Of a DNA stretch of 64,000 nt, positions 9,973 to 36,341 are shown piece by piece (position 1 is the stretch's first letter; each line of letters starts with the position of its first letter). The stretch covers positions 35,618-99,617 of the forward strand of contig NZ_JAXMEM010000012.1 of the NCBI RefSeq assembly GCF_046348305.1, given 5' to 3'. This DNA is from Ottowia sp. (GTDB lineage Bacteria > Pseudomonadota > Gammaproteobacteria > Burkholderiales > Burkholderiaceae_C). The position numbers and the translations under genes were made by a program. Under the pieces are notes generated by a model. The model was not told the DNA's origin. It saw only the letters and a program-made list of their open reading frames with translations, and did not search any database.

Positions 9973-10098
9973 TCAAGCTCGCCCACCCTGCATCGACCTT
10001 GCGCAAAGTCCAAGCATTGTCATGGTGTCAGGGGATCCCGCCTGCGCCAGCTTGCCCGGGCGCAGATCGGACAACACGTTGCGGTCGATCAGGTACAC
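9973..10098 (-). pseudogene. Truncated VapC/PIN toxin (N-terminal fragment only)
   Basis: GTG 3 nt after antitoxin stop reads MYLIDRNVLSDLRPGK (PIN start consensus YLLDTNVLSEL), loses similarity and stops after 41 aa. Confidence 0.7.
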
Positions 10099-10100
10099 GC

Positions 10101-12382: not shown

Positions 12383-12391
12383 GAACCCATT

Positions 12392-12976
12392 ATGACCACG
12401 CCGCCCGACAAAAAATCCCTGCGCGCCCGTCTGGTGCATGAGCGCCTGCACCTCGGCGACCGGCTCGCGCGCGCCGACGCGCTGCAAGACATCCTGCGCA
12501 TCTGGCTGATCGGGCGGCCCGACACGGTGATTGGCGCGTATTGGCCGATCAAGGGCGAGTTTGACCCCCTGCCCGCCCTGCACCGCTGGAAGGAGGACGG
12601 CGAGCTGATGGACGAGCCCCAGCGCCGGCGCATCGGCCTGCCGGTGGTCAACAAGCTGCATCGCACGCTGACCTTTCACGCCTGGTACCCCGGCTGCCCG
12701 ATGGAGGAGGACGCCTACGGCATCCCCAAGCCCAAGGACACCGAGCTGATCGTGCCCACCTTGTTGTTCGTGCCCTGCGTGGGCTACGGCCCCGGCGGCT
12801 TTCGCCTGGGCTACGGCGGCGGCTTTTACGACCGCACCCTGGCCGCCCTGCAGCCGCGCCCGCACACCGTGGGCCTGGGCTTTACCAACGGCTTTCTCGA
12901 AGACCTGGAGCCCGAGGCGCACGACGTGCCGCTGGATGCGATCCTGAATGACAACGGGGTGGTTTGGCCGGTGTGA
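12392..12976 (+). CDS. 5-formyltetrahydrofolate cyclo-ligase
   Basis: KKSLRARL, YWPIKGEFD, YGIPKP, FVPCVGY...RLGYGGGFYDRTL. Confidence 0.92.
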   Translation: MTTPPDKKSLRARLVHERLHLGDRLARADALQDILRIWLIGRPDTVIGAYWPIKGEFDPLPALHRWKEDGELMDEPQRRRIGLPVVNKLHRTLTFHAWYPGCPMEEDAYGIPKPKDTELIVPTLLFVPCVGYGPGGFRLGYGGGFYDRTLAALQPRPHTVGLGFTNGFLEDLEPEAHDVPLDAILNDNGVVWPV

Positions 12977-13028
12977 GGCTGTACGCAGGTTGACGCAGCA
13001 GAAACAGCGTCCGGGACTTCAACCGTTG

Positions 13029-14018: not shown

Positions 14019-14141
14019 AGCGAGATTGATGCAAATCGGGAATCAATAGCGTGGCGGGATTTCATTGGACTGTCAATGGGGATCGGCGCAACATGCAGCC
14101 ATCGGATTCATTCCCGATTCAATGCTTTCCAGGAGCCCGCC

Positions 14142-20488: not shown

Positions 20489-20596
20489 AACAGCCGGACG
20501 CAGAGGACGCAAAAAATTCCATTCATGAGGACCGGATCCAGATTGAAGTTTTCTGCGCCTTTTGCGAAACCTTTGCGTCCTCTGCGTCCGGCTGTT
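20489..20596. repeat. 108-bp element with perfect 25-bp terminal inverted repeats (family B)
   Basis: AACAGCCGGACGCAGAGGACGCAAA (20489-20513) / TTTGCGTCCTCTGCGTCCGGCTGTT (20572-20596). Confidence 0.85.
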
Positions 20597-20623
20597 CATG
20601 GTTTTTATCGGCCCCCGGTAAAT

Positions 20624-20682
20624 TACAAGCGGTTTCAGTCGCTCGCGCCCATCCCGTGCGTGCAAGCAGCTATCATTTTTGA
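20624..20682. repeat. Repeat family A, intergenic copy abutting a start codon
   Basis: ...GTGCAAGCAGCTATCATTTTTGA immediately before ATG 20683. Confidence 0.7.
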
Positions 20683-21915
20683 ATGAACCCTTCCATGTTT
20701 CCGCGCGCCGCGCTGCTGGCCTTGTGCGCCGCCTGGGCGCTGCCCGGCGCGGCGCAGGACGCGCCCGCGCCCAGCCTCGACCCCGCCGAATTCAAGACCT
20801 GCCTGAGCCAGCTGCAGGGTACGCCGGCGTTTCGCGCCATCACGGCGCAGACCTTTGCCGAGCAGACCCGCACGCTCGCACCCGACCCCTCGGTGCTGGT
20901 GCTGCTCAATCGCCAGCCCGAGTTCACCATGCCGGTGTGGGACTACATGGCCGTGCTGGACGACGCCGAGCGCGTGCAGGACGGGCGGGCGGCCTTTGCC
21001 AAGTGGCAGGATGTGCTGCAAAAGATCGAGGCGCAGACGGGCGTGCCCGCCGCCATCATCACCGGCGTATGGGGCGTGGAGAGCAATTTCGGCCAGAACC
21101 TGGGCGGGCGCCCGCTGGTGCAGTCGCTGGCCACGCTGTCGTGCTTCGGGCGCCGGCAGGCCTACTTTCGCGGCGAGTTCGCGGCGGCGCTGCGCATCAT
21201 CCAGGAGGGCCACATCGCGCCCGACAAGCTGACCGGCTCCTGGGCCGGCGCGTTCGGGCAGACGCAGTTCATGCCCAGCACCTTTTTTGCCAACGCGGTG
21301 GACTTCGACGGTGACGGGCGGCGCGACATCGTGGACAGCGTGCCCGACGCGCTGGCCTCGACCGCCAAATTCCTGCAAAACGCCGGCTGGCGGCGCGGCG
21401 AGCCCTGGGGCTTTGAAGTGCGCCTGCCCAAGGGCTTCGACAGCTCGGGCGCAAGCCGCAAGGCCAAGCAGCCCATCGCCACCTGGCAGCGCGCCGGCCT
21501 GACGCTGGCGGATGGCCAGCCCCTGCCGGGCGATCTGCCCAGCGCCGGCCTGATGATTCCGGCCGCCGGCGGCCCGGCCTTTCTGGTAGGGCGCAACTTC
21601 GACGCGCTGTACCGCTACAACGCCAGCGAGAACTACGCCCTGGCCATCGCCCACCTGGCCGACCTGATCGCCGACCCGCAGGCGCCCCTGGCCTTTGCCA
21701 CGCCCTGGCCCACGGACGATCCGGGCCTGTCGCGCGCCGAGAACCGCGAGCTGCAAACCCTGCTGCTGGCGCGTGGCCACGACATCGGCACGGCCGACGG
21801 CATGATCGGCGCCAAGACGCGCGAGGCCATCAAGGCCGAGCAGCAAAGGCTGGGCGTCAAGGCCGACGGGCGCGCCGGCCAGAAGCTGCTGGCCGCGCTC
21901 AGAAAAGCGGATTGA
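20683..21915 (+). CDS. Lytic murein transglycosylase (MltB/SltB-like) with C-terminal PG-binding domain
   Basis: Signal peptide; WGVESNFG, GSWAGAFGQTQFMPS, YNASENYA, DGMIGAKTR. Confidence 0.92.
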   Translation: MNPSMFPRAALLALCAAWALPGAAQDAPAPSLDPAEFKTCLSQLQGTPAFRAITAQTFAEQTRTLAPDPSVLVLLNRQPEFTMPVWDYMAVLDDAERVQDGRAAFAKWQDVLQKIEAQTGVPAAIITGVWGVESNFGQNLGGRPLVQSLATLSCFGRRQAYFRGEFAAALRIIQEGHIAPDKLTGSWAGAFGQTQFMPSTFFANAVDFDGDGRRDIVDSVPDALASTAKFLQNAGWRRGEPWGFEVRLPKGFDSSGASRKAKQPIATWQRAGLTLADGQPLPGDLPSAGLMIPAAGGPAFLVGRNFDALYRYNASENYALAIAHLADLIADPQAPLAFATPWPTDDPGLSRAENRELQTLLLARGHDIGTADGMIGAKTREAIKAEQQRLGVKADGRAGQKLLAALRKAD

Positions 21916-23829
21916 TCACGAAGTCGATTCGGCGGCCGCCGCACGCGGCGCATTGAGCACGAAGGCATCGGAGAAACACGCGCCCTCTTCCAGCCCGTGC
22001 GACAAAAAGGCGGGCACCGCCGTCTGCACCATCATGGTGGAGCCGCAGGCGTACAGCTCCTGCCCGCGCATGTCGGGAAAGTCCTCCAGCACCGCCTGGT
22101 GCACCAGGCCGCGGCGGCCCTCCCAGCCGTCGCCCGGCGCGCCATCGGACAGCACCGGGATGAAGCGGAAGTTGGCGTGCTCGCACTGCCAGGTTTCGGC
22201 CAGATCGCGCATGTACAGGTCGGACACCTGGCGCACGCCCCAGTACAGGCGCATGGGCCGCGTGATGCCGCGCGCAAAGGCGTCCTCGATGATGCTCTTG
22301 ACGGGCGCAAAGCCCGTGGCCCCCGCCAGAAAGACGATGGGGCGCTCGCCTTCGCGCAGCGTGAAGCGCCCCAGCGGCCCCTCCAGGCGCAGCGTGTCGC
22401 CCACCTGCATGCCGTCGAACACATGGCCGGTGAAGCGCCCGCCCGGGATGCGCCGCACGTGCAGGTCGATCAGCGGGCGCTGCATCGGCGGGTTGGCAAA
22501 CGAGAAGGCGCGGCGCTCGCCGTCCTCCAGGATCACGTTCAGGTACTGGCCGGCGATGAAGTCCAGCTTCAGGTCGGCCGGGGGTTGCAGCAACAGGCGC
22601 ATCACCTCGGGCGCCAGGCGTTCCATGCTGACCACGGTGGCGCTGAACTCTTGCTTGATCAGGGGCTCCAGGGTTTCGACCTCGATCTCCAGGTCCTCCA
22701 GCGGCACGGCACAGCACATCAGCGCCTGGCCGCGCTCGCGCATGGCCTCGGTCAGCGTGGCGGGCTGATACGGGCCGTGGTCGAACTTGCCGTTGAGCAC
22801 CGTGCACACGCACAGCCCGCAGCCGCCGGCGCGGCAGTCGTATTGCAGCGGCAGCTCGGCGCGCAGGCCGGCCTCCAGGATGGTCTCGCCGCGGCGCGCC
22901 GACACGTGGCGCGCATCGGGATGCACGGTCACGTTCAGGGTGCGGGCCGCGCCGCCCGCGCGCCGCCACACCAGCCAGGGTTGCACCAGCAGCAGGCCGG
23001 TCACGCCCAGCACCAGCGCCCAGGTCCAGGCCGGCCCCCAGGCGTGCACCAGCGGGTACAGGCCCAGCAGCAGCCAGTCGAGCTTGAGCTGGCTGGGCAC
23101 CACGGCCATGTGCGCGGGGCCGCCCTGGCTGACGACGGGCAGCACCAGCGCCAGCACCAGCAGCATCACGCCGGCACTGACGGCGATCGGCTTGGGCGGC
23201 TGCATGGCCGCCTTGGGCACGCGCTGCACGTGCACCCACATCAGCAGCAGCGTGAGCAGCGGCACGCCGATGTGGATGAACACCAGCAGCGAAAACAGGC
23301 GATCGCTCACGGTGCTGTCGTAGATGAAGTTGCGGATCAGCGAGCCGCGGAACAGCGGAATCCAGTCCAGCCACTCGAAGCTGGTGGTGGTGACGAACTG
23401 GGCGAGCTGGTCCCAGGGCAGCATGTAGCCGTTGGCGCCGGCGGCATACACCAGCCAGATCAGCGCCACGCCCGTGACCCACGAGAACGCACGGAAGCCG
23501 CGCAGCCGGTCGAACGCGAAGTAGCGCAGCATGTGGATCACCATGGTCACCACCATGGCGTCCGAGGCGTAGCGATGCACGCTGCGCACGATGCCGCCGA
23601 TGAACCACTGCCGGTGCGTGAGCCCCTCCACCGACTGGTAGGCCCCCGTCACGCTGGTGTCGAAGAAGGCAAACAGGTACAGGCCGGTGCCGGCGACGAT
23701 CCAGAACAGGAAGAAGGTCAGCGGACCCAGGTGGTAGTAGGGGTTCAGGCGGTCGCCGAAGGCGCGGTTGAAGACCGCCTCCACCCGCATGAAGCCCCAG
23801 CGCATCAGCGCCTGCAGCCGACCGATCAT
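21916..23829 (-). CDS. Diheme cytochrome b fused to [2Fe-2S] ferredoxin and FAD/NAD(P)-binding reductase
   Basis: HRYASDAMVVTMVIH and HIGVPLLTLLLMWVH His pairs (14 apart), GYMLPWDQ; CRAGGCGLC...C; RRAFSFAN, AGATGFAP, YACG. Confidence 0.85.
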   Translation of the reverse strand: MIGRLQALMRWGFMRVEAVFNRAFGDRLNPYYHLGPLTFFLFWIVAGTGLYLFAFFDTSVTGAYQSVEGLTHRQWFIGGIVRSVHRYASDAMVVTMVIHMLRYFAFDRLRGFRAFSWVTGVALIWLVYAAGANGYMLPWDQLAQFVTTTSFEWLDWIPLFRGSLIRNFIYDSTVSDRLFSLLVFIHIGVPLLTLLLMWVHVQRVPKAAMQPPKPIAVSAGVMLLVLALVLPVVSQGGPAHMAVVPSQLKLDWLLLGLYPLVHAWGPAWTWALVLGVTGLLLVQPWLVWRRAGGAARTLNVTVHPDARHVSARRGETILEAGLRAELPLQYDCRAGGCGLCVCTVLNGKFDHGPYQPATLTEAMRERGQALMCCAVPLEDLEIEVETLEPLIKQEFSATVVSMERLAPEVMRLLLQPPADLKLDFIAGQYLNVILEDGERRAFSFANPPMQRPLIDLHVRRIPGGRFTGHVFDGMQVGDTLRLEGPLGRFTLREGERPIVFLAGATGFAPVKSIIEDAFARGITRPMRLYWGVRQVSDLYMRDLAETWQCEHANFRFIPVLSDGAPGDGWEGRRGLVHQAVLEDFPDMRGQELYACGSTMMVQTAVPAFLSHGLEEGACFSDAFVLNAPRAAAAESTS

Positions 23830-25253
23830 GCCGGCACCTCCATGGACCGGGCCCGCATGGCGCGCAGCACCACGACGACGAACAGCAGGCCGCCGATCAC
23901 GGCCAGCAGCCCGCCCAGGCCCATCAGGCCCATGCCGGCCACCTCGGCCGTGCTGCGCAGCACCTGCTCGCTGCCGGCCACCTTGCGCTGCACGCCATAG
24001 CCGCCCGACCAAACCAGGCCGATGATGTGCATCAGCTGCCCCGCGCCATACAGCCAGGGCTGCCACACCGCCATGCGCCCGCGCGGCGCGCTCCAGCCCA
24101 GCGTGGGCAGCAGGTGATAGACGATGCCCATCAGCGCCAGCGTGACGCCCACGATGCAGCCGTGGTAGTGCGCCGGAATCTTGACGTTGCTGCCGCTGAT
24201 CAGCATGCCGATCACGCCGCCGCAGGCGAACAGCAGCATGGAGCTGACCAGCGCGCCCCACAGCGGCCTTTGCTCATCGCGCAGCCGGCGCAGCGGCGCC
24301 AGTGCCAGCACCACGGCCAGCGCGATGGGAAAGATCGCCAGCCCGCCCCCAACGCGCATGGCCCAGGTGTGCAATTGGCGGTTTTCCACGCTGACGGCGT
24401 CATACGCCACATAGGCGTAGGGCGTGATGAACACGCTGACCAGCGCCAGCATGAGCAGCAGCAAGGCGATGCGCGGGCTCAGCAGCACCCGCCCGCCGCA
24501 GGCATGGGCCAGCCACAGCCACACCACCAGCATCAGCAGCGTCCAGGCAAACTGCAAGGCGTGGCCACCGCCCCAGAAGAGGATCTCGTAATAGGTGCGC
24601 AAATCCATGCGGGTGGGCACCGCGGCAAACGACCAGGCAAAGGCCAGCAGCGCCACGGCCACGCACACCACGCTGGCACTCAACCCGAAGCGCAGCGCGC
24701 GCTCGCCGTCGATCACGCCGCCCAGGCGCGGGGCGGCCAGCAGGCTGCGCAGCACCTGCACGCCCAGGCCCAGGCCAAAGACGACCAGCCCGGCCAGGAA
24801 CAGCGGCCCGTGCAACACCGGGATGTAGTTGGCCATGATGGCCTCGCCCGGGCGGATGAAGGCGCCCAGCGCCATCAGCACCGTGCCGCTGCCGCACAGG
24901 CCCAGGGCGGCCCAACTCCAGCCGAGGCCGCGCTCGGTGGTGTTCAGGCTCCACAACATGCCCGCCATGGCGGCAAACCACACCAACACCGACAAATCCA
25001 CGTGCACCACCAGTGCCACGCGAAAAAAGTCGGCAACCGGAAACCACTGGTTGACGCCCGGCGTGCGCGCCAGCACCAGCAGCACCGAATAGAGGCCCGA
25101 GCCAGCCAGCGCCGCCAGCCCCAGCGCCAACCAGGCCCGCGCCAGCGCGCGCTGGGCGGTGGTGGGCTGCGGCAAGGTGTAGGCGGCAGGCTCTGCCGTG
25201 CGCGGCGCGTACAGCGCGTGGGGATCGAAAATGGCTTGTGCAGGGTGATTCAT
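23826..25253 (-). CDS. Heme-copper oxidase subunit I-like paralog with degenerate binuclear site
   Basis: ~12 TM; LVVHVDL, ILFWGGGHALQF, IPAHYHG; only one His (QLHTW) where the HH pair is expected. Confidence 0.75.
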   Translation of the reverse strand: MNHPAQAIFDPHALYAPRTAEPAAYTLPQPTTAQRALARAWLALGLAALAGSGLYSVLLVLARTPGVNQWFPVADFFRVALVVHVDLSVLVWFAAMAGMLWSLNTTERGLGWSWAALGLCGSGTVLMALGAFIRPGEAIMANYIPVLHGPLFLAGLVVFGLGLGVQVLRSLLAAPRLGGVIDGERALRFGLSASVVCVAVALLAFAWSFAAVPTRMDLRTYYEILFWGGGHALQFAWTLLMLVVWLWLAHACGGRVLLSPRIALLLLMLALVSVFITPYAYVAYDAVSVENRQLHTWAMRVGGGLAIFPIALAVVLALAPLRRLRDEQRPLWGALVSSMLLFACGGVIGMLISGSNVKIPAHYHGCIVGVTLALMGIVYHLLPTLGWSAPRGRMAVWQPWLYGAGQLMHIIGLVWSGGYGVQRKVAGSEQVLRSTAEVAGMGLMGLGGLLAVIGGLLFVVVVLRAMRARSMEVPA

Positions 25254-25336
25254 ATCAATCTTCCAGGGTGCTGCCAAGCGCCGGGGGCGCCGCAAACCCA
25301 AAGCGCCCATTGGCCGCCGAGCGGGCCATGACAGCG

Positions 25337-25406
25337 AACGCCGTGGCCGGACCTGCGCCGGCCACAGGCGTTGCCCCTCCTCCAGGCGCAGCGCCAGAGA
25401 GGAGGG
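25337..25406. repeat. Two GC-rich intergenic hairpins inside the respiratory cluster
   Basis: AACGCCGTGGCCGG/CCGGCCACAGGCGTT (25337-25372); CCCTCCTC/GAGGAGGG (25375-25406). Confidence 0.65.
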
Positions 25407-25436
25407 AAGGCGCGCAGCGACGCAGGGAGGTGTTCA

Positions 25437-25970
25437 TTAGAACGTGATGCCGCCCTTCTCGGCGTTGTAGTCGATCACCAGGACTTGATTGGGTTTGAGC
25501 GTCACCGTGTCCTCGAGCTGCGCCGTGAAACCCGGAGCGCGTGCGTCGTCCTTCATGCGAACGGCAATTTTTTGTTCCCCGGCCGGCACCTGGACCCGCC
25601 GATATACCGCGGAGGCGCCATCGCGCTTCAGGCCACTGGGCTCGGCCGTCTCTTGCAGCACGCGCCGGCCGTTGATGTCCACCTCGATGCTGACGGGCGA
25701 GCGCTCGCGCGGGCAAATCTGCTTGGGACGCATCTGCGGGGGCAGCTTGGCCTTTTCTTCCTCGGTCAGGGGGCGGCAGTCGCCCACCGGCTTGCCGGTG
25801 TGCGTGAAGCTGATCTTGATCAGCGCATCGCCCGGCGGCAGCGGGTGGTAGACGGGCCAGTGCGAGAACACGCCGATGAACACGGCAAACAAGACGTACA
25901 GCAGCGCCTGGCCCAGCCATGCCCCCACGGAAACGCGATGGCGCGAAGGATCGACGGTGGAGGCATTCAT
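25437..25970 (-). CDS. Membrane-anchored hypothetical protein, coupled to the cytochrome b-MvhD gene
   Basis: One N-terminal TM, two Cys (DCRP, QICPRERSP); ATG overlaps upstream stop. Confidence 0.7.
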   Translation of the reverse strand: MNASTVDPSRHRVSVGAWLGQALLYVLFAVFIGVFSHWPVYHPLPPGDALIKISFTHTGKPVGDCRPLTEEEKAKLPPQMRPKQICPRERSPVSIEVDINGRRVLQETAEPSGLKRDGASAVYRRVQVPAGEQKIAVRMKDDARAPGFTAQLEDTVTLKPNQVLVIDYNAEKGGITF

Positions 25971-27562
25971 GTGGACAACTCGAGGGCGGATGGGGTGCGC
26001 TCGCGCGCCGACTGCGGGCCGCGCCAACGATCGAGGATGGGTGCGATGGCATCGGCATCCCGCGCACCGGACCAGACCATGGCCCAGCGTTCGCGCGGCA
26101 CGGTGGGCCGCAGGCGGGGCTCGCGCACGCCGTGCAGGCGCTCGTGCAACAGCGTGGCGCCGTCGCGGAACGCGCAGTGGCCGGGCGCGCACGCCTGCAC
26201 GAGCACGCCGGCGGCGCCGTCGCGCAGCGCGTATTCGACGAAGGCGGGCGGCAACTGGCCGACGCACAGCAATTCGATGGCCACCACGTCGGGCGCCAGC
26301 AGGCAGGCCGGCGGCGGCACGTGGGCGCAGCGAAAGGCCACGATGGATCGGGCCGCGGGCGCAGCCTGCAGCCGCTGGCGCAACTGCTCGCGCAGTGTGT
26401 TGACCGGCAACTGCGGCATGTCGATGCCGCTTTGCAAATCGGCCACGCTGCGAAATGGCGTCGCCGATGGGCAGGCGCCGGCGCAGATGCCGCAGCGCGC
26501 GCAGCGCTCGGCATCGACCACGGCCAGCTCATGACCGGGCTTGCCGCTGGGGTGCGCGACCATGCCGATGGCGGCGTAGGGGCAGTCATCGACGCAGCGC
26601 CGGCAGCCGCTGCAATAGTCGGGATCGACCCGGGCCGCGGGCGCGTCCTCGCGGCGGTGCGGCATGAAGGGCAGCCACAGCAGACCGGCCAGGGCGCCAC
26701 CCAGCACAACCCAGGCGAGCCCGCCCGACAGCGCGTCGGCCATGGGGTGGACAAACAGCAGCAACCAGTCCAGCCGCAGCGCGGCGGGCACCCGGGTCAT
26801 GTCGGCCGCCGGACCGCTGACCACGGGCGTCACGGTGGCCAGCCCCACGAACATGGCCAGCAGACCCAGGGCCAGCGGCTGCGGCGGCACGACGCGCGCG
26901 CGCGGCAGGCGCTGGATGTGAAACCACAGTCCGAACGTCATCAGCAGCGCCACGCCCAGATGCACGAAGACGAACAGCGAGAACAGGCGGTCGCCCACCG
27001 TGTCCAGCGACAGGAAGTTGCGCGCCAGCGGCGTGGTCAGCCCCGGCAGGGCGTCCAGCCATTCGGCGGTGGCCAGGGCCGAGTACTGGCCCAGCTCGTC
27101 CCAATTGAGCCAGAAGCCGCCGATGCCGCAGACAAAGGCAAACACGATGAGCGGCACGCCGGTGAGCCAGCTGAAGCGGTGATGGGCGCGAAAGCGCCCA
27201 TGCAGCCATTCGCGCAACGCGTGCAGGCCCATCAGCAGCACGAAGGCATCGGCCGCGTAGCGATGCACGCTGCGCAGCCAGCCACCGTAGAACCAGGGCC
27301 ACGCGGCCAGGCGCTCGATCGAGGCGTGGGCGCCGGCGGCCGAGGTGTCGATGACGGCGTACAGGTAAATGCCGCTGGCCGCCAGCGTCCAGAAGCACAG
27401 AAAGGCCATGCTGCCCAGGTGATGCAGCGGATTGAGCGCCGGCCACGTCCAGCGGTCGATGCCGCGCTCGAGCGCTTGCCAGGCAGCCAGGGCGCGCCCT
27501 GGCGCTGCCGGAGCCCCGGCGCGGCGCGGCACCGGCGCGGGCAGGACAGCGGCGGCATTCAA
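25967..27562 (-). CDS. Diheme cytochrome b fused to 2x[4Fe-4S] ferredoxin and MvhD/FlpD-like domain
   Basis: TTG start overlapping SCO stop; HRYAADAFVLLMGLH, HLGVALLMTFGLWFH; CSGCRRCVDDCP, CARCGICAGACP; IVAFRC..LLCVGQ..GVLVQACAPGHCAF. Confidence 0.82.
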   Translation of the reverse strand: MNAAAVLPAPVPRRAGAPAAPGRALAAWQALERGIDRWTWPALNPLHHLGSMAFLCFWTLAASGIYLYAVIDTSAAGAHASIERLAAWPWFYGGWLRSVHRYAADAFVLLMGLHALREWLHGRFRAHHRFSWLTGVPLIVFAFVCGIGGFWLNWDELGQYSALATAEWLDALPGLTTPLARNFLSLDTVGDRLFSLFVFVHLGVALLMTFGLWFHIQRLPRARVVPPQPLALGLLAMFVGLATVTPVVSGPAADMTRVPAALRLDWLLLFVHPMADALSGGLAWVVLGGALAGLLWLPFMPHRREDAPAARVDPDYCSGCRRCVDDCPYAAIGMVAHPSGKPGHELAVVDAERCARCGICAGACPSATPFRSVADLQSGIDMPQLPVNTLREQLRQRLQAAPAARSIVAFRCAHVPPPACLLAPDVVAIELLCVGQLPPAFVEYALRDGAAGVLVQACAPGHCAFRDGATLLHERLHGVREPRLRPTVPRERWAMVWSGARDADAIAPILDRWRGPQSARERTPSALELST

Positions 27563-28455
27563 TGCAGGGCCTCCGCAGGCACCGGTGCGCTCCGGCGCAC
27601 TTGCCGGCGGGCGCGCCGATGGCGCCGCCATTCGAGCACGAAGTACCCGATCATCCACACGAAGAACACCATGCCGCCAACGATCTCCATCACCAGCGCG
27701 TACTTGAAGCGGTAGGTGCCGGTCTCCGGGTCGTATACGGTGCACAGGATGCGCACGCGTTCGAGCAGGCCGGCCAGCGTCTCGCGCTGGGTGACGGGCG
27801 CGCGGCCCAGCAGCTGGCGCAGTGGCTCGCCGAGCTGCTGCGCCGTCAGTTGGTCGCCCCAGACCTGGGTGGCGATCTTGCCCTCGGCATCCAGCACGGT
27901 GACGCCCAGGATGTGATCGAAGCCCGCCGGCGTGGCCAGGTAGCTGAAGCCGAAGCTGCGCGTGAGCGGCTCCACGATCTTGGCGTGCGGGCTGAGGAAC
28001 TCCCAGTTGGGGTACTTGATGCCGTACTGCGCGGCAAACGAGCGCAGCGCCACCGGCGAGTCGGCCGGCTGGTTGAAGCCGATGCTGACGACGTTGAACT
28101 GGCCCGGGCTGAGCAGCTGGTCCAGCCCCTTGACGGCTTCGTGCAGGTTGCGCGTGCTGGTGGGACAGATCTCGAAGCAGCCGGTGTAGATGAAGCTCAC
28201 CAGCAACGGCTTGCCCCGGTATTGGGACAGCCGCACCGGCTTGCCCTGGCGGTCGAGCAAGGTGAAGTCGGGCGGCGTCGTGCCGATCACGGCCTGGCCG
28301 GCGGCCAGCGCGGCGGTGGCGTCCAGGCGGGGCACGGTGCTGGCCACGGCGTCGTCCGCCTGCGCCCATCCGGCGGCGCCCAGCAGGGGGAGCACGCCTG
28401 CCAGCGTCCACAGCATGCGTTGCACACGCTGGGCCAGCCCGGTCACCGCTTTCAT
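27559..28455 (-). CDS. SCO-family copper chaperone with C-terminal TM extension
   Basis: YTGCFEICP CxxxC, conserved His in GFDHIL, thioredoxin fold. Confidence 0.88.
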   Translation of the reverse strand: MKAVTGLAQRVQRMLWTLAGVLPLLGAAGWAQADDAVASTVPRLDATAALAAGQAVIGTTPPDFTLLDRQGKPVRLSQYRGKPLLVSFIYTGCFEICPTSTRNLHEAVKGLDQLLSPGQFNVVSIGFNQPADSPVALRSFAAQYGIKYPNWEFLSPHAKIVEPLTRSFGFSYLATPAGFDHILGVTVLDAEGKIATQVWGDQLTAQQLGEPLRQLLGRAPVTQRETLAGLLERVRILCTVYDPETGTYRFKYALVMEIVGGMVFFVWMIGYFVLEWRRHRRARRQVRRSAPVPAEALH

Positions 28456-28513
28456 CCGCACGTTCAAGCTCCGAACCGCCACGGCCAGCGCCGCGGCGAT
28501 CAACGGGCCACGC

Positions 28514-30214
28514 TCAACTGAGGCCCCACAGGGTGGACAGGTACTTCCAGTTGATGAAGTAGTACAGCACGAAGGCCACCAGGAACACCATGGCCAGCAC
28601 GAAGGTGCCGGGGGCCGCAAAACCGGCCGAACCGGCGGTTTGCGCCACCACGGTGGGGGCGGTGCGCGGGATCGGCGTGAAGGTGGCGCGCTCGGCGCCG
28701 CGTTCGAGCTTCTTGCCCCACAACAGCGAACCGACGGTGACGTAAATGTAGATCGCGCCACCGGCAATTGCCGCCACGCCGCCGATGCCCACCAGGCCCA
28801 TCATCAGGTAGGCGGCGCCCGGCCATTCGTAGGCCAGCGGGTTGCCGCTGAAGGCCATGTCCCAGTGGCGACGCGACACGCCCAGGGTGCCGGCGCCCAT
28901 CATCACCAGGCAGAAGAAGTACATCGAGAAGCCGAAGATGTACGGTTGCCACTTGGCCAGCTTGGGCGCGATCATCTCGCGCTTGAACAGCACCGGGATC
29001 AGGTAATACGTCAGCGCCATGAAAGTCAGCGTGGTGCCCACGACGACGGTGGCGTGAAAGTGGCCCGGCACATAGATCGTGTTGTGGATAATCATGTTGA
29101 GCTGCTCGGTGCCCATCATCACGCCCGAGATGCCGCCCAGGAAGCCAAAGCCGATGATCGAGATGAACACGCCCGAGAACGTGGGGTTGCCCCAGGGCGC
29201 CTTGCGCAGCCACTCGAACAGGCCCTTGGTGAAGCCCTTTTGCCGCTGCGCCACTTCCATCGCGCCGGGCACCGTCAGGCCGTGCAGCATCGAGGCCAGC
29301 ACCGCGAAGTACATGAAGTAACTGGTGTTGACGATCTTCCAGGGCGTGGACAGGCCCGGGTCGGCCAGCAGGTGGTGTGCGCTGGCCAGCTGGAGGAACA
29401 AGATGTAGAGCAAAAACGCCGTGCGGCTGACGCGCTCGCTCATCGGCTTGGCGCCGAAGACGACCGCTGCCACCAGATACCACACCGAGATGTGCGCGGC
29501 CACGTTGATCTGCTGCGAGGAGTGTCCCAGCGCCCACCAGATGGTGCGGTAGGCCAGCGGATCGACCTGCTTGATCAGGCCGATGGACATCAGCCAGGTC
29601 GGGATCAGGATGATGGCGCCCGACAGCAGGGTGAACACCGCAATGATGGCCGCCGTGATGGCGCCCATGGTGACCAGCGGCACCGAGCCCTGATAGGTGC
29701 GGTCGCGCTTGGCGACGACCAGGGTGCCGAAGAACACGCCGCATCCGATCAGCGCGCCGACGGCGAACAGGATGATGGTCAGATAGAACCAGGACGAGGC
29801 CATCATGGGCACGTAGCTGGTCATCATGACGCTGGAGCTGCCCTGGAACACGACGATGTTGTTGCCCACCGAGCCGATCACCATCAGCGCAAAGGCCAGC
29901 CAGGCGAGCTTGGGTGTGGCAATGCGGCAGCGCAGCAAGGTGGAGGCGCAGAAGTACAGGATGGCGATCTCAAAGAAGATCAGCCAGAAGATCAGCATGT
30001 CCAGGCCATGGGCCGTGAGCACCATGTAGAAGGTGTCGGCCTCCAGCCAGTGCACCGCCGGCCAGCGCGTGAGCACCACGCCGATGGCCAGCAGGCCGCC
30101 GAAGGCCAAGAACAGCACGCCGGCGACGGCGTTCCACATGATGAGTTTTTCGGCCTGCGCTTCAAATTGCAGGCCCGATCGCGGGCAGGTGCGATAGGTG
30201 GTGGCTTGTCCCAT
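28514..30214 (-). CDS. Heme-copper oxidase superfamily subunit I, B-family-derived, eNOR-like (Gln at cross-link Tyr position)
   Basis: TAHG, WWALGHSSQQ, SAHHL, PGHFHAT: all six His present; H+4 residue is Q, not Y. Confidence 0.85.
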   Translation of the reverse strand: MGQATTYRTCPRSGLQFEAQAEKLIMWNAVAGVLFLAFGGLLAIGVVLTRWPAVHWLEADTFYMVLTAHGLDMLIFWLIFFEIAILYFCASTLLRCRIATPKLAWLAFALMVIGSVGNNIVVFQGSSSVMMTSYVPMMASSWFYLTIILFAVGALIGCGVFFGTLVVAKRDRTYQGSVPLVTMGAITAAIIAVFTLLSGAIILIPTWLMSIGLIKQVDPLAYRTIWWALGHSSQQINVAAHISVWYLVAAVVFGAKPMSERVSRTAFLLYILFLQLASAHHLLADPGLSTPWKIVNTSYFMYFAVLASMLHGLTVPGAMEVAQRQKGFTKGLFEWLRKAPWGNPTFSGVFISIIGFGFLGGISGVMMGTEQLNMIIHNTIYVPGHFHATVVVGTTLTFMALTYYLIPVLFKREMIAPKLAKWQPYIFGFSMYFFCLVMMGAGTLGVSRRHWDMAFSGNPLAYEWPGAAYLMMGLVGIGGVAAIAGGAIYIYVTVGSLLWGKKLERGAERATFTPIPRTAPTVVAQTAGSAGFAAPGTFVLAMVFLVAFVLYYFINWKYLSTLWGLS

Positions 30215-30224
30215 GGTGCGTCCC

Positions 30225-30767
30225 TCAGTCCTTGATGTACATGCGGCCCACCATGGTGTGGTGGCCAATTCCACAGAACTCGTTGCACACGATCGAGATC
30301 TGGCCCGACTGGTTGGGCGTGATGGTCAGCACGTGCTCGAAGCCCGGCACCAGCTGGATGTTGATGTTCTGCGGCTGCAGCGAGAAGCCGTGGTTGTAGT
30401 CCATGGCCGTCAGATGCAGGCGGTATTTCTCGCCCTTCTTCAGCTCCAGGATGGGCCAGAAGTTCCACAGCCGGCCCAGCATGTAGACGTCGCTGCCCGG
30501 CGGCGGGGCCACCACGGGCGTGTTTTGCTCGCCTTCGGTGCGCACCGTGTACTTGTCGACCACGGCCTGCGCCTTGGCCGTGAACTTCTCGGGCGTGGTG
30601 CGGTAGGTCTCGGTCGACAGGTTCTGGTTGCCCCAGACGTGCCAGCCGACCATCATGACGAACATGATCAGGCACCAGGTCAGCGACAGCACGATCCACG
30701 TGCCTTCGACCCGGTCGATGGGATGCTTGTACCAAAGCCGCTCGGGCGGCGGAAGAATGGCGCTCAT
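30225..30767 (-). CDS. Heme-copper oxidase subunit II with CuA site
   Basis: Single TM; DYNHGF and CNEFCGIGHHTM CuA motif; no CxxCH. Confidence 0.92.
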   Translation of the reverse strand: MSAILPPPERLWYKHPIDRVEGTWIVLSLTWCLIMFVMMVGWHVWGNQNLSTETYRTTPEKFTAKAQAVVDKYTVRTEGEQNTPVVAPPPGSDVYMLGRLWNFWPILELKKGEKYRLHLTAMDYNHGFSLQPQNINIQLVPGFEHVLTITPNQSGQISIVCNEFCGIGHHTMVGRMYIKD

Positions 30768-30807
30768 GGTGTGGAACCTCGGGGTGGAAAGGCGATCGGA
30801 CCGGGGC

Positions 30808-30972
30808 TTACTTGCCCAGGGGCAGCATCATGATTTCGACCACGCCCCACAGGTTGTAGACCAGCATGGGAATCAGCACGCCCAGGAACAGCAGGATGAA
30901 GGGGCTGTCCAGCAACTGCTGCATCCAGGGAATGGGTTCGTTGGGGTCGTTCAGGTCGTCTTTCTGGCTCAT
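30808..30972 (-). CDS. Small single-TM oxidase subunit (IIa-like, 54 aa)
   Basis: MSQKDDLNDPNEPIPWMQQLLDSPFILLFLGVLIPMLVYNLWG; first gene of operon; GGAGGG RBS. Confidence 0.7.
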   Translation of the reverse strand: MSQKDDLNDPNEPIPWMQQLLDSPFILLFLGVLIPMLVYNLWGVVEIMMLPLGK

Positions 30973-31052
30973 GGATCCCTCCGGTGGAAAACCCGCGCCC
31001 AAGCGGACGCGGGGAGGCTCGCCCATTCTCGAGTAACCCACTCGGGATTGAT

Positions 31053-31066
31053 TTGACTTAGTTCAA
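31053..31066. promoter_or_regulatory. FNR/DNR/NnrR-type binding site
   Basis: TTGACTTAGTTCAA matches TTGA-N6-TCAA; lies between the oxidase operon and divergent ctaA-like gene. Confidence 0.7.
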
Positions 31067-31121
31067 TGTTTGGCGCCGCGGCCCGGCGGGCCGGCCGGAC
31101 GTCGCGCTACGATCGCGCGCC

Positions 31122-32066
31122 ATGACGCCCACCGCCCCCAGCGCCAGCAGCCCCCCGTCCGACCCCGACGCGCGCGATCCGGCACGCCGACTGCGCCGCA
31201 TGGCCCGGCTGTGCGCCGCGCTGGTGCTGGCGATCATCACGCTCAGCGCGTGGCTGCGCCTGGCCCGATCCGGCATTGGCTGCGCGGACTGGCCGGCCTG
31301 CTACGGAGCGGTGTGGCAAGCGGCCGCCCCCGCGCTGCCGGCCGGCGCCGAGACGTCCGCCACGGTTCTCGCCGTGCGGCTGGCGCACCGCGTGCTGGCG
31401 GTGGCCGCGCTGGTCTTGATCGTCGTCATGCTGGCCAGCGCGTGGCCGCCGCGCCGGCACGGGTGGCGACCGGCGCTGGAAGCCGGCGCGCTGCTGGCCG
31501 TCACCCTGGGCCTGGCCGTGCTGGGGGCCCTGGGCGCGCAGTCGCTGCTGCCGGCGGTGGCGCTGGGCAACCTGCTGGGCGGCTTTGCCATGCTGGCCCT
31601 CAGCCTGCGCCTGGCCAGTGGCCGGCCCATCGACGCCGGAACCGGCGCTCGCGTCTGGCTATGGGCCGCGTTCGGGCTGGTGCTGCTGGAAACCGCACTG
31701 GGCGGCCTGGCCAGCGCCAGCGGTTCCCTGCTGGCCTGCGACGGCCTGAGCGATTGCTGGGCAGAGGCACAGGACGGGCCCGCATGGAGCGCGCTGAACC
31801 CCTGGCACGCCCCAGCGCTTGGCGGCGGCGCCGGCGTGCAATGGGCGCACCGGCTGGGCAGCTGGCTCGTGCTCTTGCTGGCTGCGCCGCTGGCCTGGCG
31901 CCTGCGCCCGCACGATCGGCGCGGCGCCGCGGCTGTGCTGGCCTGCCTGCTGCTGCAAGCCGCACTGGGGCCGCTGATGGCGAGCGCCGGCTATCCGATG
32001 GCGCTGGTGCTGGCGCACAACGTGCTGGCGGCCTTCACGCTGGCCTTGCTGGCACGCTGGCTCTGA
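31122..32066 (+). CDS. COX15/CtaA-family heme A synthase-like protein
   Basis: GCADWPAC, LAHRV, ACDGLSDC, WAHRLG, LAHNV; 8 TM pattern. Confidence 0.8.
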   Translation: MTPTAPSASSPPSDPDARDPARRLRRMARLCAALVLAIITLSAWLRLARSGIGCADWPACYGAVWQAAAPALPAGAETSATVLAVRLAHRVLAVAALVLIVVMLASAWPPRRHGWRPALEAGALLAVTLGLAVLGALGAQSLLPAVALGNLLGGFAMLALSLRLASGRPIDAGTGARVWLWAAFGLVLLETALGGLASASGSLLACDGLSDCWAEAQDGPAWSALNPWHAPALGGGAGVQWAHRLGSWLVLLLAAPLAWRLRPHDRRGAAAVLACLLLQAALGPLMASAGYPMALVLAHNVLAAFTLALLARWL

Positions 32067-32080
32067 GATTGACCCGCCGG

Positions 32081-32521
32081 CTACTTCTTGCCCTTCATCA
32101 GCGCCTGCAAGCTGGCCATGTTCTCCTGCATGCGCTGCTGCACCACCTTCCAGGCGTCGGTGCGGGTCTTGGTCTCCAGCGCGGCCAGTTCCTGGAAGTC
32201 CTTCATGGCCTTCTTCATGCCGCGTTGCAACACCTCGCCCTGCTTGGCCATCGCGTCCTTGTCCAGCGCGCCTTTCATCGACTCCTGCAGGGCGGCCAGG
32301 TTCTCGCGCAGGATGGCGCTGCGCCGCTCGGCCAGCGCCTTCATGCCCTCATAGGCCTGGCGATTGGCCTCGGCCAGGGCCTCGAAGTCCTTGCGCTGCC
32401 ATTCGACCAGCGCGCTCGCGTCCACGCCGGGCAGCTTGAACTGCTTGAGCGTCTTGGTGAGTTCGCCCAAATCGGGCATGCCGGGCGCGGCGGCAGATGA
32501 CTTCTTGGTGCTTGTGGCCAT
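32081..32521 (-). CDS. Phasin-family protein
   Basis: FKLPGVDASALVEWQRKDFEALAEANRQAYEG; helical, Lys/Ala-rich. Confidence 0.8.
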   Translation of the reverse strand: MATSTKKSSAAAPGMPDLGELTKTLKQFKLPGVDASALVEWQRKDFEALAEANRQAYEGMKALAERRSAILRENLAALQESMKGALDKDAMAKQGEVLQRGMKKAMKDFQELAALETKTRTDAWKVVQQRMQENMASLQALMKGKK

Positions 32522-32567
32522 GACGATCCTCCAGGGGCGGGTTGAAAAACGGTGGGAATGACAGACG

Positions 32568-34151
32568 CTACGAGGCCGCCGCACGCGAACGCACGCGCTT
32601 TGCGGCAGCCGGTTTGTCGCCGGCTGATTTGCGGGCGGGCGCGCGGCGCGGCGCGGACTTCTTGCGCGCCGGGGGCGGGGCGGCGGCGGCCACCGGCGCC
32701 ATCGTGTCGGCCGGTGTGCCAGCGCCCTCCGCGCCATCCACGGCCGGCAGGCGCTTGATTTCGGCCAGCGCGTCTTGCAGGTAGCCCAGCAGTTCGGTGG
32801 ACTCGTCCTGCGACAACGCGCGGCGGCAGGCGGTGATGCCGAACTCGAGCGTCCCGGCATAGCTCTGGACGGTGATGTTGACGGCCATGCCGTGGTAGGG
32901 AATGGAGACGGGATAAAACGCCACCATCCTGGCGCCTGCCACGTACAGCTGGATGGCGGGCCCGGGCACGTTGGAGACGGTGACGTTGGCCAGCGGCGGC
33001 AGCCGGCGCGCCAGGTTGGAGCGCCCGTACAGCGAGGCCAGGCTGGTCATGACCCAGGGCGAGCCGGTGAAGGGCAAGTCCACGCCCAGCACGGGCTTGA
33101 GTTCGCGCACCACGGCCTTGGCCGCCTCGGACGAAGCGTGGATGGCCGCAAAGCGCGCGGCGGGGTCTGCCAGGTCGGTGGCCAGATCGACCCGCACCAT
33201 CGACACCTGGTTGTTCATGTCGTCGTTGCCCTCCACGCGCAGGCTGACCGGCACCGCGGCGATCAGGGGCTGGGCGGGCAGCAGGTTGCGCTCGGCCAGA
33301 AAGCGCCGCAACCCGCCGGCGCACATCGCCATGACGATGGTGTTGACCGTGCCGCCGACGCGCTTGCCCAGCGCCTTGAGCTCATCCATGGGCACCGACA
33401 GGGTGGTGAACGAGCGCTGGTTGGTGATGGCGTCGTTGAAGATGGTCTTGGGCGCCAGGCCCAGGTTGAGCGCGCGCTCGCCCGGTGTGCTCTGCTGGCC
33501 GGCCAGCACCCGCGCGGCGGTGGTGAGCGCGCGCGCCGCGGTGGGCAGCAGCTCGGCCAGCTTGCGGTATTGCTGGGCGGTGTTGGTGACGGCCGCCTGC
33601 AAGAGCTCGGTCACGCCCAACTGATAGGCCGTGGCGCGGCGCGCGCGGTGCGGCGGGCGCACGCGGCGGATTTCGGCGGAGGTGTCATACAGCACCTTGG
33701 CCAGCTCGGTGCCGGCCTTGCCGTCCACCCCGCTGTGGTGGGCCTTGGTGTAGAAGGCCACCTGGCCGTTTTGCAGGCCCTCGATGACGTACATCTCCCA
33801 CAGCGGGCGGCTGCGGTCGAGCAGGCTGGAATGCAGTCGCCCCACCAGTTGCTGCAGCTGCGCCATGGAGCCCGGCCGGCGCAAGACGAGGCTGCGCACG
33901 TGGTAGTCCAGGTCGATGTCGTCATCATGGATCCACACCGGCTCGGCCAGCTCGAACGGCATGGTGGCCAGCTTGCGCGTGAGCACCGTGGCCAGGTGCA
34001 GGCGCTCGCCGATCATGGCCTTGACGTCTTCGTAGAAGTCGCCCTGGTAGTCCCTGGGCAGCTCCAGCAGCATGAGGCTGCCCACGTGCATGGGCGTCTC
34101 GGGCGTTTCAAGATGCAGAAAGGATGCGTCGAGGCTGCTGAGGTGGTGCAT
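32568..34151 (-). CDS. Wax ester synthase/diacylglycerol acyltransferase (WS/DGAT)
   Basis: LSSLDASFLHLETPETPMHVG, HHSGVDG catalytic motif, LDRSRPLWE, NVTVSNVPGP. Confidence 0.93.
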   Translation of the reverse strand: MHHLSSLDASFLHLETPETPMHVGSLMLLELPRDYQGDFYEDVKAMIGERLHLATVLTRKLATMPFELAEPVWIHDDDIDLDYHVRSLVLRRPGSMAQLQQLVGRLHSSLLDRSRPLWEMYVIEGLQNGQVAFYTKAHHSGVDGKAGTELAKVLYDTSAEIRRVRPPHRARRATAYQLGVTELLQAAVTNTAQQYRKLAELLPTAARALTTAARVLAGQQSTPGERALNLGLAPKTIFNDAITNQRSFTTLSVPMDELKALGKRVGGTVNTIVMAMCAGGLRRFLAERNLLPAQPLIAAVPVSLRVEGNDDMNNQVSMVRVDLATDLADPAARFAAIHASSEAAKAVVRELKPVLGVDLPFTGSPWVMTSLASLYGRSNLARRLPPLANVTVSNVPGPAIQLYVAGARMVAFYPVSIPYHGMAVNITVQSYAGTLEFGITACRRALSQDESTELLGYLQDALAEIKRLPAVDGAEGAGTPADTMAPVAAAAPPPARKKSAPRRAPARKSAGDKPAAAKRVRSRAAAS

Positions 34152-34175
34152 GGCTTGGTGTCCAGGGACTGGGGA

Positions 34176-34763
34176 TCAGGCGCCGGCCACGCCGTAGGCG
34201 GCGTGGCGCCCGGCCACCGCCGCGACGTCGTGGCTGAGCAGCACCAGGTCGTGCAGGTCGCCGTCGCGATCGGCCACGTGCTGGCGCAGCAGGGCTTCGG
34301 GGTGAAACCCGAGGTCCTCGAACACGGCGATGGCGCCGGTCTGGTTGGTGGTCATTTGTGCCACCAGTTTTTTCAACCCCAGTTCGAGCGCCTGGATGAA
34401 GCACTCCTGGATCAGGCAGCGGCCCAGCCCGCGGCCGCGCTCGGACGAAGCCACCAGCACGCGCAGCTCGCCCACGTGGCGCGACCAGCTCAGCGGATCG
34501 GTGTAGATGGAGCTGCAACCCACCAGTTGGCCGCCCCGACGCGCCGCCAGGCCGGCCATGCGCCCGTCTTGCAGCGCGGCCATCCAGGCGTCGATCACCT
34601 TGGGATGGTTGATGTCGCGCGGCACGAACAGCAGGTCGGTGGTGGGCAGCCGGGCGACGAACTCGACCAGTGCCGCGCGGTCGCTGGCCTGCAGGCGGTT
34701 GAGTTCGACGGCGTCGCCGCCGCACTCGAGCGTGCGCGGGTAGCTGCGTGAAGCTTCGGTCAT
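34176..34763 (-). CDS. GNAT N-acetyltransferase
   Basis: ERGRGLGR acetyl-CoA motif; start overlaps phaC stop (ATGA). Confidence 0.85.
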   Translation of the reverse strand: MTEASRSYPRTLECGGDAVELNRLQASDRAALVEFVARLPTTDLLFVPRDINHPKVIDAWMAALQDGRMAGLAARRGGQLVGCSSIYTDPLSWSRHVGELRVLVASSERGRGLGRCLIQECFIQALELGLKKLVAQMTTNQTGAIAVFEDLGFHPEALLRQHVADRDGDLHDLVLLSHDVAAVAGRHAAYGVAGA

Positions 34764-35848
34764 ACGGAACGTCCCTCCAGCCAGGCGTCCAGCCTGGGCC
34801 ACATGCGTTTGACAGCGTTGGCGCCGGCGGCAATGCTGACATGGCCGCCGGGCAACGTGACTTCTTCCTTGTCGGTGGAGCCGATCATGCCCAGCAAGGG
34901 TTGCGAGCAGGCGGCGGGCACGATGTGGTCGTACTGCGCGGCGATGTGCAGCAGCGGAATGGTGATCTGCTTGAGATCCACCGGGCGCCCGCGGATCGTC
35001 AGCGTGCCCTTGTACAGCGCGTTCTCGCGCAGCAACTCCTTGGTCATCTCGCGAAAATAGCCGCCCGGCACCGGCAGGGTCTCGTTGCCCCAGCGCTCCA
35101 TCATGCGAAAGCCCACCACGTACTGATCGTTCCACATGTTGTCCCACAGCTTGATCTGCCCGGCCACGCGGCTGGCGGGGCGCAGCGCGTCGAAGCCGTT
35201 CCTGATGAAATCGGCGGGGATCACGCCGTTGCGATTGACGAAGGCATCCAGATCGAACGCCTTCTCGTCGGACATGGCGCGAAACAGCTCCATCTGCGAG
35301 AAGTCGATGGGCGTGGTGAAGCAGGCAATGTTGCGCACCGGCCCGCCCGGGTGCAGCGCCAGGTAGATCAGCGAGAGCATGCCGCCGGCGCAATACGACA
35401 CCAGGTTGACGTCCTCCTCGCCCGAGTCCTGCTGCACGCGCCGGATGCAGTCGGGGATGAAGTCCAGCACGTAGTCGGCCAGGCCCAGGTCGCGCTCGGC
35501 GGCGGTGGGCGCGTTCCAGTCGATCATGTAGACGTCGTAGCCGCGCTTGAGCAAAAACTCGACCAGGCTTTGGCCGGGCGCCAGGTCGAGCACGTAACCC
35601 TTGTTGGTGGGCGCCATGACGATCAGCAGCGGAATGCGGTAGACCTCGTCGGCCAACGCGTGGTAGTGCACCAGCTCGACCGTGCCGCGCCGGTGCAGCA
35701 CGGTCTTGGGCGTGCGGCCCACCGTGGGCGGCTCCGCGCCCATCAGCTCGATGCCCTTCAGGCCGCGCTGCACGGCGCGCTCCACTTCCAGGCGCAGGCG
35801 CTCGGTCAGGGCCAGGTCGGCGTCGCTGGTGCGGGCTTGGGTGGCCAT
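34760..35848 (-). CDS. phaC: Class III-type PHA synthase catalytic subunit
   Basis: TPKTVL, VLDLAPGQSLVEFL, SYCAGG catalytic Cys, YDHIVP, PGGHVS. Confidence 0.85.
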   Translation of the reverse strand: MATQARTSDADLALTERLRLEVERAVQRGLKGIELMGAEPPTVGRTPKTVLHRRGTVELVHYHALADEVYRIPLLIVMAPTNKGYVLDLAPGQSLVEFLLKRGYDVYMIDWNAPTAAERDLGLADYVLDFIPDCIRRVQQDSGEEDVNLVSYCAGGMLSLIYLALHPGGPVRNIACFTTPIDFSQMELFRAMSDEKAFDLDAFVNRNGVIPADFIRNGFDALRPASRVAGQIKLWDNMWNDQYVVGFRMMERWGNETLPVPGGYFREMTKELLRENALYKGTLTIRGRPVDLKQITIPLLHIAAQYDHIVPAACSQPLLGMIGSTDKEEVTLPGGHVSIAAGANAVKRMWPRLDAWLEGRSV

Positions 35849-35852
35849 GATG

Positions 35853-36341
35853 TCAAGCCTTGGCGGGGCGACGGGACCGGGAGGCGGTCTTGGCGGTCTT
35901 GGCGGGCTTGGCCTTGGTCTTGGCCGATGCGTCCTGGTTGGCCTTGGGCGCGGGCGCCACGGCTTCGGGCGCAGCCTGGGCCGGGGCAGCGGGCGCGCTG
36001 GGCGCGACGACGGGTGTGGCCGCAGGCTTGCGTGTGCGCGCCGGGCGGGGCACCTCATCGGGGGGCAGCAGGCGATCGAGTTTCTGCTCGATGCGCTCCA
36101 GCGTTTGCACCAACTCGGCCAGTTGCTTGCGGCTGGGCAGGTTGGCGCGGCGCAGGTAGCCATCGACCATCTTGTCGAAGCCCTGTTGCATGCCGGCGGA
36201 CACCGCCGTGGCCTGTTGCAGCGAGCGCACCAGCTCGGGCGACTTCAGGCTGCCGGTGGCCATGGTATTGGCCTCACCCTCCAGGCGGTTGATGGCGTCG
36301 CGCCACATCTGCAACGGGTCGAGAAACAGCGAGGGGATCAT
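35853..36341 (-). CDS. PhaE-like PHA synthase subunit with Ala/Lys/Pro-rich tail
   Basis: YLRRANLPSRKQLAELVQTLERIEQKLDRL; directly upstream of phaC. Confidence 0.72.
   Translation of the reverse strand: MIPSLFLDPLQMWRDAINRLEGEANTMATGSLKSPELVRSLQQATAVSAGMQQGFDKMVDGYLRRANLPSRKQLAELVQTLERIEQKLDRLLPPDEVPRPARTRKPAATPVVAPSAPAAPAQAAPEAVAPAPKANQDASAKTKAKPAKTAKTASRSRRPAKA

Follow-up and report, generated by a model that had tools for sequence, protein, structure and literature searches.

The eNOR family of nitric oxide (NO) reductases was first put forward in 2008, and its characterisation followed in 2021-2024; its members derive from the B-type oxidases, carry CuA in subunit II, and conserve a K-type channel (Murali et al. 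2024, PMC11214002). They can be recognised by the residue at the cross-linking site, which is Gln in eNOR, Tyr in the O2 reductases, Asn in sNOR, and Glu in cNOR and qNOR (PMC8756737, section 2.7.1, Table A4). The R. marinus eNOR turns over 0.68 NO per second but does not reduce O2, its two heme sites each hold a modified heme A, and it is produced under micro-oxic conditions (PMC11214002); its channel comprises Q-245, Y-256, S-318, H-321, and E-(II)21 (bioRxiv 10.1101/2021.10.15.464467, Supplementary Table 1). Some eNORs have His/Lys ligation of the low-spin heme (Murali et al.), and a CtaA homologue neighbours many eNOR operons (PMC11214002). In Ferrigenium straubiae grown under denitrifying conditions, eNOR I/II rank first in abundance among the oxidase-family transcripts, and a quinol:NAD+ oxidoreductase or a supercomplex has been proposed for the proteins of its operon (10.64898/2026.01.22.701106). 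Here, we describe a locus in 64,000 nucleotides of an Ottowia sp. genome from wastewater or activated sludge (NCBI RefSeq assembly GCF_046348305.1, contig NZ_JAXMEM010000012.1, positions 35,618 to 99,617), a stretch that we call the window and within which positions 30972-28514 very probably encode a three-subunit, eNOR-type NO reductase of B-type (ba3-like) descent in which the His-Tyr cofactor has been lost.

Three genes lie within 28514-30972, all on the minus strand: an open reading frame (ORF) of 54 amino acids, subunit II, and subunit I. For subunit I (28514-30214), the likeliest start is the ATG at 30214, after GGGA, giving a protein of 566 amino acids, which is the length of nearly all its close homologues; the mechanically called ORF starts at the GTG at 30274. 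The protein has the heme-copper oxidoreductase fold and matches Pfam COX1 (208 bits, E value of 2.6e-61), but it passes no NCBIfam model, the best of them, CtaD, scoring 58 bits where 671 are required. There is no eNOR among the entries of the PDB copy that was searched, in which the best matches to subunit I are B-type oxidases.

All six His ligands are found in subunit I (H69, H231, H280, H281, H385, and H387), and ligation of the low-spin heme is bis-His. Helix VI is YRTIWWALGHSSQQINVAAHISVWY, which contains WWALGHSSQQ, and phmmer aligns GHSSQQ on the GHPIVY of T. thermophilus ba3 such that His231 corresponds to H233 and Gln235 to Y237; with Gln235 at His+4, the His-Tyr cofactor of the B-family O2 reductases is absent. 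The K-channel equivalents in subunit I are Y246 for Y248, S308 for S309, H311 for T312, and T314 for T315. These alignments uphold what a sequence-only reading of this DNA had claimed, namely, that the six His ligands are present, that Gln occupies the H+4 position of helix VI, and that the equivalents of Y248, S309, and T315 are kept with T312 replaced by His. That reading had also placed the protein in a B-derived eNOR family with Gln and a CuA-containing subunit II, which matches both the published definitions (PMC8756737, PMC11214002) and the complete CuA motif described below.

To place subunit I among its relatives, we drew on a search of 1.8 billion cluster representatives, which returned 191 matches below 1e-30, and pooled the listed cluster representatives with the closest homologues and the cluster members. 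The motif H-x-x-Q-Q occurs in 161 pooled sequences, including every readable (non-frameshifted) relative with at least 46% identity as well as one haloarchaeal sequence at 40%, whereas 21 sequences, all with no more than 43% identity, have H-x-x-Q-Y and 12 have the classic B-type H-P-x-V-Y. Q234, N237, and H311 are kept in all 161 H-x-x-Q-Q relatives, and Y246 and S308 are kept in all but a few of them; with the motif and these residues kept in so many relatives, Gln235 is not a sequencing accident.

A neighbour-joining tree (mafft --auto alignment, 518 columns, Kimura distances, 300 bootstraps) places subunit I within the Gln-bearing clade and apart from the Tyr-bearing oxidases, in line with the earlier reading, and the split that defines this clade is supported by 276 of the 300 bootstraps. 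Its members include the homologues of Steroidobacter denitrificans (85% identity), a Defluviimonas plasmid (60%), a metagenome cluster (52%), a Thermus thermophilus megaplasmid (46%), Thermomicrobium roseum (45%), and Natrarchaeobius (38%). The ba3 fragment in the tree agrees with the phmmer alignment to ba3. A scan of genomes yielded at least 584 matches, and the best 80 of these are all proteobacterial copies that are 80-91% identical.

The link to the characterised enzyme of R. marinus is anchored in a published residue table, in the genome table of the same authors, and in named copies on plasmids of Thermus, Thermomicrobium, and Defluviimonas. From Gln to Tyr, Ser, and His, the spacing is +11, +73, and +76 both in Q235/Y246/S308/H311 and in the R. 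marinus channel, and because R. marinus eNOR has H-321 at the corresponding position, the replacement of ba3 T312 by His is a signature of the eNOR family. Murali et al. scored ENOR=1 for S. denitrificans GCF_001579945 and for Piscinibacter caeni; the former encodes the 85% identical homologue of subunit I within the same operon, and a contig of P. caeni MQ-18 (L013, 85% identity) is among our related loci.

Subunit II (30225-30767, minus strand, 180 amino acids) consists of an N-terminal helix and a cupredoxin domain in which every residue of the CuA site is present, H126, C161, E163, C165, H169, and M172 (H...CxExCx3Hx2M). Its closest solved relative is subunit II of ba3 (E value of 7e-16), with the CuA ligands aligned, and its Glu21 is the counterpart of E(II)15 in ba3 and of E(II)21 in R. 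marinus, at the entrance of the channel. The six CuA residues and Glu21 are invariant in 79 of 79 related loci. Directly upstream, and likewise in 79 of 79 related loci, is the 54-amino-acid ORF (30808-30972, minus strand), whose translation reads as a single helix; there are small ORFs at the same place in the loci of Steroidobacter, Thermus, Thermomicrobium, and Defluviimonas. By its position, which is like that of subunit IIa of ba3, the 54-amino-acid protein is probably a small third subunit.

The family placement, like the sequence features and the structure and conservation of the operon, is an observation of this analysis; for catalysis, heme type, proton uptake, and regulation, we infer from the R. 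marinus enzyme and from family-level literature. In the mechanism that we propose, electrons from a periplasmic carrier would enter at the CuA of subunit II, pass to the low-spin heme (H69, H387), and from there reach the high-spin heme (H385) and the metal site formed by three His (H231, H280, H281), at which two NO would be converted to nitrous oxide (N2O). This two-electron reaction needs no tyrosine radical, in contrast to the reduction of O2. Protons would be drawn from the cytoplasm by way of the K-channel analogue formed by E21 of subunit II, T314, Y246, H311, and S308, and the NO reduction step would therefore be electrogenic. Both hemes would probably be A-type, supplied by the neighbouring CtaA, and CuA would be loaded by the SCO1 of the operon.

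The heme A synthase homologue (COX15/CtaA, 314 amino acids; Pfam PF02628, 92.9 bits) is encoded divergently on the plus strand at 31122-32066, an arrangement found upstream of 31 of 67 related loci. Most related operons (L003-L081) have an extra gene of ~0.9 kb between subunit I and SCO1, which in Steroidobacter and Defluviimonas is a UbiA-type heme O synthase; this heme O synthase gene is missing from the corresponding interval here (28455-28514) and from the two closest relatives (L001 and L002). Between the operon and ctaA, at 31053-31066 and 94 nucleotides upstream of the first ATG, is TTGAACTAAGTCAA (operon strand), the only TTGA-N6-TCAA in the 64 kb. The same pattern occurs within 250 bp upstream in 37 of the 79 related loci, as against ~1.2 expected from a background of one per 16 kb (~30-fold), and points to a regulator of the FNR family (FNR/Dnr/NnrR-type), through which the operon would probably be induced at low oxygen.

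Several points weigh against the assignment to eNOR. A single member of the family, that of R. marinus, has been assayed, and its turnover of 0.68 NO per second is low (PMC11214002). Our tree is distance-based and contains no sNOR, bNOR, gNOR, nNOR, cNOR, qNOR, or R. marinus sequences. Two tyrosines in helix VIII, Y299 and Y302 (~29309-29320), are kept in essentially all Gln-bearing sequences and are missing both from the Tyr-bearing sister group and from the B-type oxidases. The FNR-type box cannot tell a NO reductase (NOR) from an oxidase, because high-affinity oxidase operons are also preceded by such boxes. In four wastewater or sludge metatranscriptomes, the word depth of contigs over subunits I and II is 10-100x that over the flanking genes and the downstream module (20500-33000), which fits the assignment, but contig word depth over a highly conserved gene is a poor measure that may pool related organisms and may include DNA. 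Finally, in Pfam scans of the predicted genes, none of the ~45 genes in the window came out as nir, nos, nar, or nap.

Downstream of subunit I, a further five genes share its strand, most of them joined by start/stop overlaps, and the lengths of the operon genes are identical in independent gene calls on identical metagenome contigs. Their conservation was counted over the 57 related loci that have enough downstream sequence. The first gene (27559-28455, minus strand) encodes a SCO1/SenC-type copper chaperone of 298 amino acids (Pfam PF02630) and is present in 56 of the 57. Next is a protein of 531 amino acids (25967-27562, minus strand; 55/57 loci) in which Pfam and NCBIfam recognise a di-heme cytochrome b, two [4Fe-4S] motifs, and an FlpD/MvhD-like domain; its gene starts with TTG behind GGAGG, the same length is called independently, and its translation shows His pairs spaced 14 residues apart in two helices.

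The third gene downstream (25437-25970, minus strand) encodes an orphan of 177 amino acids with one transmembrane helix, a beta-sandwich domain, and two invariant Cys, and is present in all 57 loci. It has no Pfam or NCBIfam match, and although it has 956 homologues, the 120 that are listed all carry the source-supplied name "hypothetical protein." AlphaFold models it as a membrane-anchored beta-sandwich (predicted local distance difference test score of 89.6), and a fold search with this model found nothing significant, only generic beta-sandwich matches (E values of 0.016 or greater).

The fourth product (23826-25253, minus strand; 54/57 loci) is a divergent, oxidase-like subunit I paralogue of 475 amino acids (Pfam COX1, 51.5 bits) that pipelines call a cbb3-type oxidase subunit I. 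It keeps the heme ligands H84, H362, and H364 and the metal-site H231, but the His-His pair of helix VII is gone, which precludes a normal binuclear centre. No solved structure is related to it in sequence at an E value of 1 or below; its model (predicted template modeling score of 0.83) is of the twelve-helix subunit I fold, with template modeling scores of 0.6-0.7 to A- and C-type oxidases, cNOR, and qNOR. The last gene (21916-23829, minus strand; 56/57 loci) overlaps the preceding one at ATGA and encodes a reductase fusion of 637 amino acids in which Pfam finds a di-heme cytochrome b, a [2Fe-2S] ferredoxin domain, and FAD-binding and NAD(P)H-binding domains; an NCBIfam match to a BenC-like reductase falls below the cut-off.

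The Ferrigenium preprint regards the presence of two cytochrome b genes as unusual and views them as possible markers of Ferrigenium (10.64898/2026.01.22.701106). Our counts contradict this suggestion: the two cytochrome b fusions are general in this proteobacterial eNOR clade, occurring in at least 55 of 57 eNOR loci over Burkholderiales, Steroidobacterales, and Xanthomonadales-type genomes. Outside this clade, the whole downstream module is missing from the eNOR loci of Thermus and Thermomicrobium, and the Defluviimonas locus has a SCO gene and, at corresponding positions, an annotated cytochrome b protein and a small hypothetical protein, with neither the oxidase-like paralogue nor the NAD(P)H-linked cytochrome b. 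We raise tentatively the possibility that the proteobacterial eNOR opens a conserved assembly of eight to nine gene products, a new respiratory complex linking cytoplasmic NAD(P)H/ferredoxin or quinol to NO reduction across the membrane.

The presence of the module bears on what the enzyme does. It could be an eNOR by descent that works mainly in a larger complex with the downstream proteins, fed by NAD(P)H or quinol through the cytochrome b fusions and serving NO detoxification or redox balancing over respiratory denitrification. This arrangement would account for the retention of the downstream genes in 54-57 of the 57 loci, for their start/stop overlaps, and for the FAD and NAD(P)H domains that one of them joins to a di-heme cytochrome b; the module proteins were, moreover, detected under denitrifying conditions in Ferrigenium, for which a supercomplex was proposed (10.64898/2026.01.22.701106), and the relatives in the table of Murali et al. 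often already have a cNOR. However, the link between module and eNOR is one of gene context, the Thermus and Thermomicrobium loci do without the module and that of Defluviimonas without the paralogue and the NAD(P)H-linked cytochrome b, the complete CuA site favours an ordinary periplasmic donor, and metatranscriptome depth over the module is far below that over subunits I and II. On balance, we regard such a role as unlikely.

Much less probable is a divergent B-type O2 reductase in which the missing Tyr237 is replaced by a tyrosine from another helix, as in cbb3. Y299 and Y302, which are kept in the Gln clade and missing from its Tyr-bearing relatives, would be the candidates, and the FNR-type box and the neighbouring heme A synthase also fit a low-oxygen oxidase. 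In cbb3 oxidases, the position of the cross-linking Tyr lies six residues before the His-His pair, but direct reading of subunit I shows this site to be occupied by Leu274. Furthermore, the family models of Murali et al. show no migrated tyrosine, and the R. marinus enzyme reduced no O2 with any donor tried (PMC11214002); a M. magnetotacticum member has been reported to be without cytochrome c oxidase activity.

Membership in another NOR family (sNOR, bNOR, gNOR, nNOR, or cNOR/qNOR) is scarcely credible: the cross-linking Tyr is missing from all these families as well, and several have cupredoxin second subunits, but its place is taken by Asn in sNOR and bNOR and by Glu, a fourth ligand to the non-heme iron, in nNOR, cNOR, and qNOR as opposed to Gln here, gNOR has Asp for a metal-site His and no CuA ligands whereas all three His and the CuA site are complete here, the S309 equivalent that is present here is missing from sNOR, the second subunit of cNOR/qNOR is a cytochrome c or is fused whereas ours is CuA-type, and the low-spin heme of nNOR has His/Met ligation in place of the bis-His found here.

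Taking the enzyme as an eNOR, the prediction that automatic annotation would mislabel it is borne out, in that pipelines call subunit I a cytochrome c oxidase. Combined with the label given to the paralogue, genome-based N2O inventories of activated sludge therefore miss one NO reductase and count two extra oxidases. The sequence-only reading had gone on to describe a hidden denitrification step; its identification of a NO reductase holds, but "hiding" may be too strong, with no nir or nos gene in the window and three relatives with cNOR. In the genome table of Murali et al., eNOR and cNOR occur together in S. denitrificans, P. caeni, and an Ottowia, and because these three eNOR-bearing relatives also carry cNOR, the eNOR may be a second NOR and not a hidden sole NOR.

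Published tables already cover the eNOR family, with close relatives from this bacterial group among the entries, and the locus adds a member but no new biology. Its main value lies in the corrected annotation and in the inventories of N2O-related genes for activated-sludge bacteria. Transcripts of eNORs of this clade are abundant in wastewater and sludge, where N2O emission is a practical concern. If, as the conserved channel suggests, proton uptake is from the cytoplasm, the eNOR step of denitrification would conserve energy, unlike the cNOR step. The less understood part of the locus is the conserved downstream module. A scan for promoters and terminators stayed at chance level for promoters and was uninformative on the limits of the operon. 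Adjoining the locus is a storage-lipid cluster (32081-36341) that includes a phasin, a WS/DGAT wax-ester synthase, a PhaC-like synthase, and an acetyltransferase, and further on (55928-58991) is an NtrY/NtrX-type two-component system.

Among solved structures, the closest to subunit I are T. thermophilus ba3 (PDB accession numbers 1EHK and 1XME) and Aquifex 7DEG, with E values of 1e-39 to 1e-43. The Ottowia enzyme shares with ba3 the fold, the six His ligands, a CuA-containing subunit II, a small extra subunit, and the K-type channel residues S309/T315/Y248, but identity is 27%, Tyr237 and Val236 are each replaced by Gln, Trp239 by Asn, and Thr312 by His, and Tyr244 is not kept. Nearest outside the Gln clade, at 34-43% identity, is a Tyr-bearing "GHxxQY" group from Hodarchaeales, Thermoproteota, and metagenomes (P0128, P0132, P0134, and P0145), which has Q234, N237, E82, Y270, and H311 in common with eNOR but differs in keeping the cross-linking Tyr and in missing N296 and Y299. 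Members of this group are presumably O2 reductases and, judged by their residues, look like the oxidase lineage from which eNOR may have arisen by a change from Tyr to Gln. In a separate oxidase-like group (P0183, P0194, and P0217), one sequence of which is from Dehalococcoidia, Tyr replaces both one His of helix VII and the His that ligates the high-spin heme (motifs FHxxHY, YH, and YxH), an odd ligand set that matches no named family in the eNOR-related literature consulted.

Within the Gln clade, the eNOR of the Thermus megaplasmid pTF24b (L085) resembles ours in its 46% identity and in its gene order of small ORF, subunit II, and subunit I, but its low-spin ligand is Lys rather than His (HFK) and the downstream module is missing. 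On pTF24b (6796-14140), this eNOR is annotated as a b(o/a)3-type oxidase and adjoins nirS, a radical SAM gene, a cytochrome c552, and an Rrf2-family regulator. The Ferrigenium straubiae operon (10.64898/2026.01.22.701106) is alike in encoding eNOR II and I, SCO1, a protein of unknown function, and two cytochrome b-FeS(-FAD-NAD) proteins; it differs in having a heme O synthase and no CtaA, whereas the operon described here has CtaA upstream and no heme O synthase in the window. The eNOR of R. marinus DSM 4252 is from a different phylum; by the published residue table, the two enzymes agree in the Gln that replaces the cross-linking Tyr, in the set and spacing of the channel residues, and in Glu21(II), and they also share the CuA-containing subunit II and the association with CtaA.

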